Assembly: GCA_015485695.1 (NCBI GenBank)
Contig: WFTB01000027.1
Span: 20,183 to 84,182, forward strand
Reading direction: 5' to 3'
DNA: 64,000 nucleotides
DNA from: Patescibacteria group bacterium
GTDB taxonomy: Bacteria > Patescibacteriota > Patescibacteriia > WFTA01 > S139-112
This document shows, one piece after another, positions 528-62,615 of the stretch (position 1 is its first letter; the number at the start of each line of letters is the position of its first letter). The notes beneath the pieces were generated by a model. The model had not been told where the DNA came from. It worked only from the letters and a program-made list of their open reading frames with translations, and made no database searches. A program made the translations under genes and the position numbers.

Positions 528-558
528 CAATCTCTAATTCGCGCGAATAGGCGAATAG
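528..558. repeat. Conserved palindromic motif copy 1 (tcaatctctaattcgcgcgaataggcgaatag), 24 nt upstream of the ArsR-like gene
   Basis: Identical 31-mer to copy 2. Contains the 12-bp perfect palindrome ATTCGCGCGAAT. A TAATAT -10-like hexamer lies about 10 nt upstream. Confidence 0.8.
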
Positions 559-581: not shown

Positions 582-860
582 ATGATCCCGTCTCATTGTG
601 AATCAATCTATAAAGCTCTAGCCAACAAGAGGCGCCTTTTTATTCTTATGTTCCTTTCGGATTCTGGTGTCGCCACCGTCCATGAAGTTGCCGACCGTAT
701 TGGGCTTTCTTTGAAGGTGACATCGAAGCATTTGCTTATATTAAAATCCAGAGGTATCGTAAGCAGTGTTCAGATTGGTCTTGAACAAAACTATTCTATC
801 AAGAGGCCGGTTCATAAAATCGTGAAACAGTTTTTATCAATCTCTAATTCGCGCGAATAG
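582..860 (+). CDS. ArsR/SmtB-family winged-HTH transcriptional regulator
   Basis: The segment KRRLFILMFLSDSGVATVHEVADRIGLSLKVTSKHLLILKSRGIV matches the ArsR HTH pattern. The gene is bracketed by motif copies 1 and 2. Confidence 0.6.
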   Translation: MIPSHCESIYKALANKRRLFILMFLSDSGVATVHEVADRIGLSLKVTSKHLLILKSRGIVSSVQIGLEQNYSIKRPVHKIVKQFLSISNSRE

Positions 861-868
861 GCGAATAG
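838..868. repeat. Conserved palindromic motif copy 2, overlapping the 3' end of the ArsR-like gene and about 20 nt upstream of the DUF4258-like gene
   Basis: Exact repeat of the copy-1 31-mer. Confidence 0.8.
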
Positions 869-13370: not shown

Positions 13371-13397
13371 ATCTCCAATTCGCGCGAATAGGCGAAT
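13371..13397. repeat. Conserved palindromic motif copy 3 (atctccaattcgcgcgaataggcgaat), 16 nt upstream of the CYTH gene
   Basis: 26/27 identity to the copy-1/2 core. An extended -10 (TGgTATAAT, 13357-13365) lies immediately upstream. Confidence 0.8.
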
Positions 13398-13413: not shown

Positions 13414-13983
13414 ATGGACGACGGTTATAAAGAAATTGAAACTCGGTTTTTAGATATTGACGTTGAAGACCTAGAAAGACGATTAGGTAAACTCGGTGCA
13501 ACTAACAAGGGTGAAGCTTTTTTGAAAGAGACGATATTTTTAGATCGTAATGGAAACTGGGAGAATGACTTTAAAGTAGTTAGGCTTCGTGTGTTTTCAG
13601 GTGGAAAAGTAAAACTTTCGTATAAACGTTTTGTGTCGCATGATATTGACGGTACTCGAGAGATAGAATTGAGTCTTGATGAGAATCCGAAAAAAATAAG
13701 CCAGTTTTTAGAAGCTATTGACTTAGTGGTCTATCGCTACCAAGAAAAGAAACGGCATACATATGAACTTGAAGGAGTCACTGTTGATATTGACACGTGG
13801 CCTTCCATCCCCACATACGTAGAACTGGAAGGCGAATCAGAAGAAGCTCTTAAGGGAGTTGCAGAAAAGCTTGGGCTTGATTGGTCAGAAGCAGTGTTCA
13901 AGGATGCGCAAGCAATCATTGAGATGTATATAAAAAAGTCTTTTAACGATATAAAATATTTCACATTTGACAGGATTGAATAG
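13414..13983 (+). CDS. CYTH-domain protein (triphosphate tunnel metalloenzyme / CyaB-like)
   Basis: N-terminal EIETRFL (ExExK signature), internal basic and acidic beta-strand residues, and a C-terminal VDIDTWPSIPTYVELEGES. Confidence 0.65.
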   Translation: MDDGYKEIETRFLDIDVEDLERRLGKLGATNKGEAFLKETIFLDRNGNWENDFKVVRLRVFSGGKVKLSYKRFVSHDIDGTREIELSLDENPKKISQFLEAIDLVVYRYQEKKRHTYELEGVTVDIDTWPSIPTYVELEGESEEALKGVAEKLGLDWSEAVFKDAQAIIEMYIKKSFNDIKYFTFDRIE

Positions 13984-13989
13984 TAACAA

Positions 13990-14016
13990 ATCTATAATTC
14001 GCGCGAATAGGCGAAT
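13990..14016. repeat. Conserved palindromic motif copy 4 (atctataattcgcgcgaataggcgaat), 11 nt upstream of the second CYTH gene
   Basis: 25/27 identity to the copy-1 core. Confidence 0.8.
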
Positions 14017-14027
14017 ACTAGAATCGT

Positions 14028-14570
14028 ATGAGAGAAATTGAAGTAAAGGCTAAGATATCTAATAAGGAGAAGGTTTATCAAAGTCTTCTTGCGCGTGGGT
14101 GAGAATTTGCTGATCCTGTTGAATAGAATGATATTATTTTCCTTCGAAAAGGTAAGAAACTTCTTGAAGTAGAGTCGGGTGATTCTGTGCTTCGTGTTCG
14201 CAAGGTGGGAGATACGGCTAAACTGACGTATAAAGAGTATGTTTCAAACCAACTTGACTGTATCGAAGAGGGGCTTGCCATCGCTGATGCGGACACTATG
14301 CGACGTATCATCGAGCGTCTTGGATTTATCGAAGTAATCCAGGTGCACAAGAAACGTATTACCATCAAATACAAGGATTATGAGATTTGCTTCGATATTG
14401 TCGATGACCTTGGTGCTTTTATAGAGGTGGAGAAAATAGTACCAGATGATGAGGGTGATGGGGTGCAAGACGAGCTGTACGAATTTCTTTCCGAACTTGG
14501 GTTTACCAAGGAAGATAGGGTGACAATCGGGTATGACGTGCTCATGTTTATATTGAAACATCAAAGTTAA
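14028..14570 (+). pseudogene. CYTH-domain paralog interrupted by two in-frame stop codons
   Basis: A single reading frame spells MREIEVKAKISNKEKVYQSLLARG-TGA(14100)-EFADPVE-TAG(14124)-NDIIFLRKG...VRKVGDTAKLTYKEY..., which aligns with CYTH/CyaB proteins across both stops. The ORF track only calls 14187..14570. Confidence 0.55.
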
Positions 14571-14580
14571 TAAAAGCGAT

Positions 14581-15228
14581 ATGCAAGATACAAAATATTT
14601 TTTACACGGAGGGGATATCGGCAATTTCCTTGAGCGTGGAATGGTGGCAGATTTTTTTCAAGAACCAGGGTGTCGGCATATACTATATATCGGATTCCAT
14701 CACCAAAGATATGACCTAGGGTTTATCAAAAACATCAGAAACAGTATTGCTCAAGGTGTCAAATTCACCGTATATGAAAAGGGAAGCGCAAAGAATAGCA
14801 TCAATCAATTAAGCACGATTGATGGCGTATATATAGGTGGCGGAAACGAACAAGAGCTGTTAACTGCCTTTGATGAGGACAATTTTCGAGAGCCGTTTGT
14901 TAAATGGCTAAAATCGGGCAACGCAAAGGCGTATGTGGGTTCAAGCGCGGGTGTGCAGGTCTTGGGCAAGAAATACTATAGTTGGGAAGAAGAAGTGAAA
15001 GATTGGGATACTGCCCAAGATAATGGGTTCGGTATTTTTGAAAACTCTTTATTTGAGGTTCATGTTACGCAAAGAAACAGAAGATTTTTGATTGACAAAG
15101 CAATCCGGGAAGAAAGTGACATAAAACATATTTACGGAATCGACGAGGGCTCGGCAATTGTGTTGCAAGTTGGAAAGGAAGATTGTCCCGAAATAATCGA
15201 AGGTGGTGCATATGTATATAAGAAATAA
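14581..15228 (+). CDS. Peptidase S51-like (dipeptidase E / cyanophycinase-like)
   Basis: GGGNE and GSSAG motifs are characteristic of the S51 class-I glutamine-amidotransferase-like fold. Confidence 0.45.
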   Translation: MQDTKYFLHGGDIGNFLERGMVADFFQEPGCRHILYIGFHHQRYDLGFIKNIRNSIAQGVKFTVYEKGSAKNSINQLSTIDGVYIGGGNEQELLTAFDEDNFREPFVKWLKSGNAKAYVGSSAGVQVLGKKYYSWEEEVKDWDTAQDNGFGIFENSLFEVHVTQRNRRFLIDKAIREESDIKHIYGIDEGSAIVLQVGKEDCPEIIEGGAYVYKK

Positions 15229-15229
15229 C

Positions 15230-16126
15230 ATGAAAATATCCATCATTGACATTGGAACGAACAGTATTAAGCATTCTGTTTTTTGTATACGGAACAAAAA
15301 GAAAACACTCATTTCGTATGAGCGGTTTTCCGAGGTGAATCTCGGATCAAACAGAGACCATATCGAGCCTGACACGGCAGATAAAATTTTTGCCACGTTG
15401 CGGGCGTACAAGGAGAGAAACGATGAGGTAGGTGTGGAGAAAACACGACTTGTCGGAACCGACATCCTTCGCACCGCGGATAACGCATTGAAGTTTACTG
15501 AACGCGTAGAGAAATTATTCGGTGTTCCGGTTGAGGTTATCTCTCATGAGCGTGAGGGGTATTATCTTTATCGGGGTTTACGTGATGTAGTGCCCGAAGG
15601 GACAATATTTGGCGCGATTAATTGTGGTGGAGGGAGTATTGAGATTGTAATCGGTGATACGAGTGAACTTATTGATAATATCCTAATCCCGTTTGGGGTG
15701 AACGCTCTGCGCAAACAGTTTGGAAGTAAAGATGACCCAAACACAGTCGACTGGAATGGTCTTGAAACATATCTTGAACAAGAAATGAACGTGGGGCGAA
15801 CGACACTTGATTATTTTTTCTTGAGCGGAGTGTATGATTTTCTCAATATCGCCGGCAGAGCCATAGGGTTTGAGTATGACTCTTGCGATATACGGGACCA
15901 TCCTATTAAGACAGATACGCCAACGTATAGCCAACATGCTGATGTGATCAAACGAACCGCCATCGAAACGCTCAGAGACGCCTATCCGAAAAATCCAAAA
16001 TACGCGGATAATTTTGCCATAGGTGAAATGGTATACTATACAGCAGTGAAAAAACTCGGCGTGGAAGAAGTGATTCCCAGTCCGTATGAGTATACCGACG
16101 GTCTCATCGCGGAGATGATTGAGTGA
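15230..16126 (+). CDS. Ppx/GppA-family phosphatase (ASKHA fold)
   Basis: MKISIIDIGTNSIKHSVF matches the Ppx/GppA N-terminal phosphate-1 motif. Length is about 300 aa. Confidence 0.6.
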   Translation: MKISIIDIGTNSIKHSVFCIRNKKKTLISYERFSEVNLGSNRDHIEPDTADKIFATLRAYKERNDEVGVEKTRLVGTDILRTADNALKFTERVEKLFGVPVEVISHEREGYYLYRGLRDVVPEGTIFGAINCGGGSIEIVIGDTSELIDNILIPFGVNALRKQFGSKDDPNTVDWNGLETYLEQEMNVGRTTLDYFFLSGVYDFLNIAGRAIGFEYDSCDIRDHPIKTDTPTYSQHADVIKRTAIETLRDAYPKNPKYADNFAIGEMVYYTAVKKLGVEEVIPSPYEYTDGLIAEMIE

Positions 16127-16897: not shown

Positions 16898-16943
16898 TTA
16901 TGCCTCAAAATAACACGATCGACGTCAGATGAGGCACGGGAAA
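16898..16943 (+). repeat. REP/MITE-like palindromic element A (ATGCCTCA-aaataacacgatcgacgtcaga-TGAGGCACGGGAAA)
   Basis: Terminal inverted repeats flank a CGATCG-containing core. Member of a 6-copy family in this window. Confidence 0.7.
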
Positions 16944-16978
16944 ATTCATGATTGTTGTATTTTTTGCGAATCTTTAAA

Positions 16979-17026
16979 TCCCATGCCTCATATATACACG
17001 ATCGACGATATTTGAAGCACGGGAAA
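16979..17026 (+). repeat. REP/MITE-like palindromic element B (CCCATGCCTCA-tatatacacgatcgacgatattt-GAAGCACGGGAAA)
   Basis: Same family and same orientation as A. Slightly degenerate right arm. Confidence 0.65.
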
Positions 17027-17122: not shown

Positions 17123-17752
17123 ATGGACAAGCCCGTTGTCAAAAATAAATATTATGCTTTGCGACACGGGTTCTCGGAGAAGAACGAGCTTGGGTTGGTT
17201 GTAAGTTATCCGGAAAAGAGGCCTTATCACTTGACACAAAAGGGCATAGAACAAGTAAAAGAAGGTTCATTGTGGCTCAGATCCGAGCATATTGATTGCA
17301 TATATGCCTCAGACCTTACTCGTACTCGCGAGTCCGCGAAAATAGCGTCTGAAATCATCGACAACGGTGTGAGCGTGGTTTTCGATGAACGACTTCGCGA
17401 AATCGATTTTGGCGTGTTCAATGGCAAAACGCAAGATGAGTGGCGCGCGTTTTTTGATGATTATCAAAATGTGTCTGAACGATTCGTGAAACGTCCGGAT
17501 GGCGGAGAGAACTATGCTGATGTAGCGAAGCGTATGTCAGATTTTCTGTACGATGTGGAACAAAATAACGATAATCGGCATATTCTGCTAGTGTCTCACG
17601 GAATTCCGCTCTGGTTGTTGCAATGGGTGTCGTGGTGCGTGACGGGTGACGAGCTTAATAATGTGCCATATCCGGAAACCGGAAAAGCCGTAAAACTTGA
17701 TGTGCGATGTCCTCCTTATAAACAGAATAACATGATAACACGGGAGCATTAA
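17123..17752 (+). CDS. Histidine phosphatase family protein (phosphoglycerate mutase-like)
   Basis: RHG catalytic motif (YALRHGFSEKN) and a downstream conserved His region. Confidence 0.7.
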   Translation: MDKPVVKNKYYALRHGFSEKNELGLVVSYPEKRPYHLTQKGIEQVKEGSLWLRSEHIDCIYASDLTRTRESAKIASEIIDNGVSVVFDERLREIDFGVFNGKTQDEWRAFFDDYQNVSERFVKRPDGGENYADVAKRMSDFLYDVEQNNDNRHILLVSHGIPLWLLQWVSWCVTGDELNNVPYPETGKAVKLDVRCPPYKQNNMITREH

Positions 17753-26366: not shown

Positions 26367-26529
26367 TTTTTCTCCTTCTCATATCTTGAATTCGCTGAAT
26401 TTGCGATTCAAGTGTAAATAAAGAGAGCGTGTCAATAAATATTGCCATATGGCGCGAAAACATCCAATAGATTATCGCTATTTGCATTTTGCGTGTTGGA
26501 TAACCCGTAAACAACAAAATGAGTTTGCG

Positions 26530-26574
26530 TTTCCCGTGCCTCATCTGACGTCGATCGTGTTATTTTGAGGCGCG
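26530..26574 (-). repeat. REP/MITE-like palindromic element C (reverse orientation relative to A/B)
   Basis: tttCCCGTGCCTCAtctgacgtcgatcgtgttatttTGAGGCGCG. Its core is the exact reverse complement of the element A core. Confidence 0.7.
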
Positions 26575-26617
26575 AAAAATAGAGTTAACACATCGCTTAG
26601 AAGACATGGTTCCGTGT

Positions 26618-26663
26618 TTCCATGCCTCATTTGACGTCGATCGTGTTATTTTGAGGCATGGGA
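26618..26663 (-). repeat. REP/MITE-like palindromic element D
   Basis: tttCCATGCCTCAtttgacgtcgatcgtgttatttTGAGGCATGGGa. Confidence 0.7.
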
Positions 26664-62487: not shown

Positions 62488-62540
62488 AAAATCCCATGCC
62501 TCAAAATACGTCGATCGTGTTATTTTGAGGCATGGGATTT
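62488..62540 (-). repeat. REP/MITE-like palindromic element E (most symmetric copy)
   Basis: aaATCCCATGCCTCAAAATAcgtcgatcgtgtTATTTTGAGGCATGGGATtt has 16-bp perfect arms. Confidence 0.75.
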
Positions 62541-62577
62541 AGATGTTGGTACCGGATACTGTAAGTTTGAAATCTTT

Positions 62578-62615
62578 TTCATGCCTCATCTGATTTCAAT
62601 CGTGTGTGGTTGAGG
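62578..62615 (-). repeat. REP/MITE-like element F (degenerate), overlapping the 3' end of the P-loop kinase gene
   Basis: tcATGCCTCAtctgatttcaatcgtgtgtggtTGAGGttg. Confidence 0.45.

Follow-up and report, generated by a model that had tools for sequence, protein, structure and literature searches.

The closest described relatives of the gene studied here are archaeal-type triphosphate tunnel metalloenzymes (TTM) of known structure, i.e. SaTTM (Saci_0718 from Sulfolobus acidocaldarius; PDB 7NS8 and 7NSF) and the CYTH proteins of Pyrococcus (1YEM, 2DC4 and 2EEN), together with CyaB from Aeromonas hydrophila and AC-IV from Yersinia pestis (PDB 2FJT and 3N0Y), which belong to the same superfamily and have the same fold (TM ~0.8). 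The ExExK sequence is the hallmark metal- and substrate-binding motif of these proteins (Vogt et al. 2021, PMC8233210). True class IV cyclases are recognized by an HF motif located four residues before it (HFxxxxExExK), by replacement of the first arginine of the xRxR motif by a small residue, Cys, Val or Leu, and by an alanine in the place of the second glutamate of the ExE motif (PMC8233210).

In the window (the whole stretch of 64,000 nucleotides of Patescibacteria DNA that was analysed), we identified a disrupted gene of this superfamily, here named CYTH2, with two stop codons in frame. Like SaTTM and the Pyrococcus proteins, CYTH2 has the ExExK and RxR motifs and an ExE motif with both glutamates. 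It differs from SaTTM in being bacterial (Patescibacteria) and not archaeal, and in that the copy in the window, with stops at codons 25 and 33 and a glycine in place of the invariant Glu82, would be unable to make the protein. With CyaB and AC-IV it shares a score above the TIGR00318 cut-off and homologs that bear the annotation "class IV adenylate cyclase", but it is without the HF motif, keeps both arginines of RxR and has the second glutamate of ExE where these enzymes have an alanine.

CYTH2 is very probably a recently inactivated unitary pseudogene that has reached fixation in the natural population of a Patescibacteria (CPR) bacterium not so far cultured. We found a disabling lesion that is real in the organism, in a gene whose orthologs in relatives are intact, and the preliminary description of a pseudogene with two nonsense codons was upheld by the full-length CYTH frame, by the presence of the stops in seven assemblies and by these intact orthologs. 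CYTH2 resembles ordinary nonsense pseudogenes in that its frame is otherwise intact and homologous to functional orthologs, its stops are one step from sense codons, the lesion is fixed and conserved sites have undergone further substitutions, and also in having a neighbouring gene that is decaying by homopolymer frameshifts. It shows no essential difference from them, the only notable points being its location in a genome that is small and gene-dense, that of a Patescibacteria bacterium, and its confirmation across several metagenomes. The pseudogene is an instance of a well-known kind and has little significance beyond annotation; the locus is a clean, population-verified case of a Patescibacteria genome that is already minimal and is still losing genes.

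Reading frame and probable enzyme type of CYTH2

The CYTH2 frame opens with ATG at 14028 and is closed by a double stop, TAA TAA, at 14568-14573. The features of the locus are summarized in Table 1, and the coordinates given in the preliminary description for the frame and its two stops were exact. With the stops masked, the conceptual translation matched Pfam CYTH (PF01928) with 77.4 bits (cut-off 23.2), and the match runs from end to end, residues 1-167 of the protein corresponding to positions 1-177 of the 179 in the profile. NCBIfam TIGR00318 ("cyaB") was matched with 87.6 bits (cut-off 57.95). Codons 1-53, which precede the first possible restart, are clearly homologous to the intact ortholog P0002, and the frame is thus no chance reading frame. 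Its only interruptions are the TGA and the TAG, with no frameshift, deletion or further stop. In gene calls and ORF lists the locus appears only as a remnant of 127 aa with its start at GTG 14187. This remnant has been deposited as a CYTH protein (P0001 and P0121), and these entries need to be marked as the fragment of a pseudogene.

Table 1. Positions in the window of CYTH2, its lesions, the upstream motif and the neighbouring genes.
Feature	Position	Strand	Remarks
Disrupted CYTH/TTM gene (CYTH2)	14028..14570	+	180 codons including two internal stops, plus terminal TAA
In-frame TGA, codon 25	14100..14102	+	From Cys TGT/TGC by a third-position change; in 7/7 assemblies
In-frame TAG, codon 33	14124..14126	+	From Gln CAG by a first-position C-to-T change; in 7/7 assemblies
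Residual 127-aa ORF	14187..14570	+	GTG start is codon 54; without strand 1 (ExExK), helix 1 and strand 2
Codon 82	14271..14273	+	GGG (Gly) in the window strain; GAG (Glu) in sister strains
21-nt motif AATTCGCGCGAATAGGCGAAT, exact copy	13996..14016	+	Ends 11 nt before the CYTH2 ATG
AATTCGCGCGAATAGGCGAAT, exact copy	13377..13397	+	16 nt to the CYTH1 ATG
AATTCGCGCGAATAGGCGAAT, exact copy	846..866	+	20 nt to the start of a DUF4258-like ORF (887-1258)
AATTCGCGCGAATAGGCGAAT, exact copy	536..556	+	25 nt to the start of an ArsR-type HTH gene (582-860)
Intact distant CYTH gene (CYTH1)	13414..13983	+	Pfam CYTH 41.7 bits
Peptidase_S51 gene	14581..15228	+	Starts 7 nt after the double stop, 11 nt after the first
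Ppx/GppA phosphatase gene	15203..16126	+	Likely start ATG 15230; overlaps or abuts Peptidase_S51

The conceptual translation contains the ExExK motif and the basic (RxR, K and KxR) and acidic (ExE) residues of the tunnel, namely E3-I-E5-V-K7, R56/R58, K69, K108/R110, D123 and E133/E135. None of the three features of true cyclases was found. The HF motif is absent from CYTH2, which starts M-R-E3 and leaves no room for it, and from its homologs; R56, the first arginine of RxR, is present and invariant in the family; and the E133-V-E135 of strand 8 has both glutamates, of which E135 is invariant. The resemblance to CyaB pointed out in the preliminary description thus holds at the level of the superfamily and not for a true cyclase. 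Judged from these motifs, the ancestral CYTH2 was most likely not an adenylate cyclase but a TTM-type enzyme, an inorganic triphosphatase or polyphosphatase, and would have been a single-domain CYTH enzyme of 180 aa.

Among solved structures, SaTTM is the top sequence match (E 1.8e-9). An AlphaFold model of the intact ortholog P0002 (not of the window sequence) has a pLDDT of 95.8 and shows the eight-stranded TTM tunnel fold. Its best fold match is also SaTTM (TM 0.77-0.79, 30% identity), followed by the Pyrococcus CYTH proteins and then by Yersinia AC-IV (~19% identity).

The Patescibacteria homologs P0004-P0120, annotated as "class IV adenylate cyclase", are likewise without HF and keep RxR and both glutamates of ExE. 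By the criteria of PMC8233210 the cyclase annotation is probably wrong for the family as a whole and these proteins would be triphosphatases, in which case the label "class IV adenylate cyclase" is to be read as "TTM-type triphosphatase".

Recurrence and origin of the two stops

Besides the window, both stops are present in all of six further assemblies (6/6), i.e. two from NCBI (GCA_027002035.1, L001, and GCA_015488415.1, L008), three from ENA (BioSamples SAMN12239307, L002; SAMN12239314, L003, a 1-kb scaffold with a run of N; and SAMN12239301, L007) and one from Logan (SRR10312503, L009). Over 3-8 kb, L001, L002, L007, L008 and L009 are 99.8-99.97% identical to the window. L003 is 98.4% identical to it by BLAST; when the run of N is left aside, six positions differ, four of which are a deletion beside the gap. 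A few differences separate the loci from each other and from the window, which shows that they do not all go back to a single record. The independent confirmations of the stops amount to at least three BioSamples and not to seven, because all of the assemblies derive from a single environment or study, and reads may be common to some of them (e.g. where one run has given both an NCBI MAG and an assembly in ENA or Logan). Among ~5.8 billion protein clusters, no full-length allele with more than 65% identity to CYTH2 was found.

The preliminary description had left room for the two stops being sequencing errors, so that the real gene would be intact. Each stop differs from a sense codon by a single base, and the window derives from a metagenome-assembled genome, both of which speak for sequencing or assembly error. 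However, identical stops occur in at least three separately sequenced BioSamples, in two other NCBI MAGs and in a Logan assembly, and the assemblies that share both stops differ from the window at other sites. Moreover, the protein collection holds no intact allele of this species, and recurrence of substitution errors would be unexpected in consensus assemblies. The finding of both stops in six assemblies from at least three BioSamples excludes such errors, and we give an intact gene a negligible probability.

As to the origin of the stops as nonsense mutations, the column of codon 25 in the alignment is Cys in 25 of 29 intact homologs, where it forms part of an "LGC" motif, and that of codon 33 is Gln, which is invariant in 28 intact homologs and in 12/12 GTDB loci. 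Of the residues proposed earlier to fit at these positions, Gln at the TAG agrees with the alignment of homologs, while Gly or Ala at the TGA (where Cys is found instead) and Glu at the TAG do not. The closest intact ortholog, P0002 (loci L004 and L005), is 63-65% identical to CYTH2 in a gap-free, colinear alignment. L005 has TGT (Cys) and CAG (Gln) at the two sites, and a single base change is therefore enough for each stop, with TGA arising from TGT or TGC and TAG from CAG. The inactivation would thus have involved two independent single-base substitutions, at Cys25 and at Gln33. At the nucleotide level the window and L005 are 67% identical, which means that synonymous sites are saturated.

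Orthologs of CYTH2 are proteins of 175-185 aa found across Patescibacteria, in groups that include Doudnabacteria, Paceibacterota, Saccharibacteria, Nomurabacteria and Kaiserbacteria. The gene is intact in relatives, i.e. in P0002 and in 12/12 GTDB loci, with L006 as the only exception. Closer relatives and an intact allele were sought in two scans of GTDB genomes, of which the first gave no matches and the second only intact genes at 33-47% identity. In a scan of JGI metagenomes, only orthologs of the upstream CYTH1 gene and none of CYTH2 were found. The exception, L006 (protein P0003; Logan SRR14493015), is a 62%-identical ortholog with a 1-nt frameshift in its N-terminal region (nt 1-160), probably AAA to AA in "GAGCAA(A)TCAAA", as seen in a single Logan contig. 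The frameshift leaves a C-terminal ORF of 126 aa that starts at nearly the same place as the remnant of CYTH2, and is either an error in the assembly or a loss of independent origin.

All 10 of the residues that are invariant in an alignment of 31 sequences are kept in CYTH2. Its mean identity to 27 outgroup sequences (0.430) equals that of the intact P0002, and no rate acceleration was detected by Tajima's relative-rate test (19 vs 12 unique changes, p = 0.21). Judging from the kept catalytic residues and the unaccelerated rate, the inactivation seems to be recent, in accordance with the recent point mutations assumed in the preliminary description. Both stops are common to all strains and are consequently older than the slight divergence between these. 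At codon 82, L007-L009 have GAG, for a glutamate that is invariant in the family and lies on strand 5, and the window and L001-L003 have GGG (Gly). L003 has in addition R23P, and L008 has one synonymous change in CYTH2. These three polymorphisms (two non-synonymous and one synonymous) are the only ones in the gene and are too few to test for relaxed constraint, although E82G and R23P fit relaxed constraint after the stops. The most plausible order would be that the stops came first and that E82G arose later, in the lineage of the window, L001, L002 and L003.

Reading of the stops and the residual reading frame

The window contains 52 ORFs of at least 150 aa, which are ended by TAA (32), TGA (13) and TAG (7). 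Stop-free ORFs of this length span 79% of the window, and the IleRS gene, of 976 aa, is uninterrupted. The window encodes three tRNAs, two for Thr and one for Trp (anticodon CCA), and neither a suppressor tRNA nor a tRNA-Sec was found within the 64 kb. Other split genes were not seen among ORF pairs in the same frame, as judged by eye, each ORF having its own start. Alternative genetic codes (4, 25, or UAG as Gln) were ruled out by the stop usage, the ORF coverage, the tRNAs and the lack of split genes. Recoding had been considered unlikely in the preliminary description, and the use of all three stops to end long ORFs, the coverage of 79% and the anticodon CCA of the only tRNA-Trp bear this out. 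Like systems with reassigned stops (code 25 with UGA as Gly in Gracilibacteria and Absconditabacteria, phages with UAG as Gln, and selenocysteine), CYTH2 has TGA and TAG in frame at conserved sense sites, in a Patescibacteria-like genome. Unlike in these systems, the TGA aligns with Cys and not with Gly or Trp, and the window uses both codons as terminators, with none in frame in other genes.

Selenoprotein genes are classically recognized by a TGA that aligns with a conserved Cys, as codon 25 of CYTH2 does. A downstream SECIS and an open frame to the natural stop were, however, not found. The RNA at 14085-14175 showed no SECIS-like hairpin after the TGA, folding no better than shuffled sequence (z = -0.40), and the UGA sits inside a weak stem and not upstream of a hairpin. 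In the first 20 kb of the window Rfam detected only tRNAs, and nothing at the TGA. Selenocysteine at codon 25 was rejected, given the TAG eight codons later and the lack of a hairpin.

More generally, the stops could be decoded, perhaps conditionally, to give a full-length enzyme, with UGA read as Sec or as Cys/Trp and UAG read as Gln by a suppressor. In favour of this, the TGA lies exactly at the Cys site and the TAG at the invariant Gln, the rest of the frame is intact with all of the catalytic residues, and the 21-nt motif upstream is perfectly conserved. Nonsense arises most easily from one-step neighbours (TGY and CAG), however, so that plain mutation, too, would be expected to place the stops opposite Cys and Gln. 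Decoding would also need two different recoding systems within 8 codons (24 nt), in a window where TGA and TAG end long ORFs, where no other gene is split, where the tRNA-Trp has anticodon CCA and neither a suppressor tRNA nor a tRNA-Sec is encoded, and where significant RNA structure after the TGA and Rfam matches there are lacking. Selection for catalysis is also contradicted by the loss of an invariant glutamate in this strain (E82G). We regard a decoded, full-length enzyme as highly improbable.

If CYTH2 is a pseudogene, translation from its ATG would end after 24 residues, and re-initiation at GTG 14187 would give the fragment of 127 aa. In the model of P0002, the elements that this fragment is without are strand 1 (residues 2-9, with ExExK), helix 1 (residues 13-22) and strand 2 (residues 31-40, with Q33 and D35), and strand 3 (residues 53-60) carries RxR. 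With strand 1 and its ExExK, helix 1 and strand 2 missing, a catalytically competent tunnel would not be formed and the function of CYTH2 would be lost.

The fragment might nevertheless be expressed and retained as a truncated, non-catalytic CYTH protein with a new or regulatory role. Its ORF is open and alone scores above the CYTH and TIGR00318 cut-offs, it is 99-100% conserved in all strains, and the relative L006 (P0003) has also been left with an ORF of 126 aa and a near-identical start after an independent lesion. Against this role, the fragment is without three elements of the barrel, its start codon is GTG, and a sigma-70-like promoter upstream of the ORF was not found beyond chance. 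The near-identity of the strains reflects a near-clonal population and not selection, and one of the only three polymorphisms of CYTH2 strikes an invariant residue inside the ORF. A retained product of 127 aa is accordingly considered unlikely. That the stops are tolerated or used, either for conditional read-through that throttles a triphosphatase or through selection for the 127-aa fragment, is considered very unlikely; the latter is hinted at by L006, which is independently without the same N-terminal part. Even taken jointly, throttled read-through and a selected truncated product have a low probability.

Neighbouring genes and upstream repeats

An intact and distant CYTH gene, CYTH1, is located immediately upstream of CYTH2. 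The two are 21% identical in the multiple alignment, and 26% identical over 86 aa by BLASTP (E 3e-4). CYTH1 has orthologs of its own (L022 and L023, 45-48% identity), found only in two JGI metagenome contigs. CYTH2 as a recent duplicate of CYTH1 is ruled out at 21-26% identity. The view of CYTH2 as a decaying duplicated paralog, put forward in the preliminary description, could not be maintained in the light of this identity, of the separate orthologs of CYTH1 and of the finding that CYTH2 is a conserved Patescibacteria ortholog. CYTH1 has E-I-E-T-R for ExExK, with Arg in place of Lys, and a weak Pfam score. On the basis of its sequence, CYTH1 may be a member of a separate CYTH subfamily that has been little sampled and that could take over from the lost CYTH2.

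Downstream, CYTH2 is followed by the Peptidase_S51 and Ppx/GppA genes and, 26 nt after the latter, by a HAD gene, and it is probably the first gene of a putative operon with these three. A Peptidase_S51 gene also adjoins the intact ortholog in the nearest relative, L005, and the two S51 genes are 61% identical. The DNA of the dead gene, situated between the exactly conserved motif upstream and the tightly packed genes downstream, has probably been retained because it carries the promoter and transcribed leader of the latter.

The Ppx/GppA gene is intact in the window and in L002. Frameshifts that lead to premature stops disrupt it in L001, L007, L008 and L009, i.e. in four of the six assemblies that cover the gene, the window included. 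In these four, the T6 run at 15278 has gained a T, the A4 run at 15383 has lost an A, or both runs are altered. All four combinations of these indels occur, which suggests recombination or recurrent slippage. CYTH2 being fixed dead and Ppx/GppA polymorphic, the lineage seems to be dispensing with part of its capacity for triphosphate/polyphosphate hydrolysis. Selection on this triphosphate/polyphosphate module would have been relaxed, and a lineage with a second, divergent CYTH gene next door would be shedding part of it. Further downstream, L001 carries, relative to the window, three G-to-A changes within 5 nt (17445-17449) of the His_Phos_1 gene (17123-17752), i.e. R108H, A109T and one synonymous change, clustered in an otherwise near-identical strain.

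The 21-nt motif AATTCGCGCGAATAGGCGAAT occurs upstream of both CYTH genes and of two other genes, in four exact copies on the forward strand against 0 expected by chance (Table 1). Together with its flanks it forms a stretch of 28 nt, AATCT[CA][TC]AATTCGCGCGAATAGGCGAAT, and it holds a perfect 12-bp palindrome, ATTCGCGCGAAT, as well as the direct repeat GCGAATA-G-GCGAATA. The motif is a candidate operator or promoter element common to CYTH2 and the three other genes, and more specifically a candidate operator of an ArsR-like regulator, in which case both CYTH genes would belong to one small regulon. Promoter and terminator scans and Rfam searches around CYTH2 gave nothing relevant. L001 has an extra copy of AATTCGCGCGAATAGGCGAAT at 1965-1984, which arose by a tandem duplication of 227 nt. 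The strains also differ at 13994-13995, with a TATAAT-like sequence in some and TCCAAT in others.

A second repeat, ATGCCTCAAAATAACACGATCGACGTCAGATGAGGCAYGG, of ~40 nt and hairpin-forming, occurs as tandem pairs at ~16900-17020 (+), 26524-26659 (-) and 62492-62605 (-). The three sites are intergenic, and a stretch of 42 nt is 100% identical between two of them. This repeat may be a REP-like or terminator-like element.
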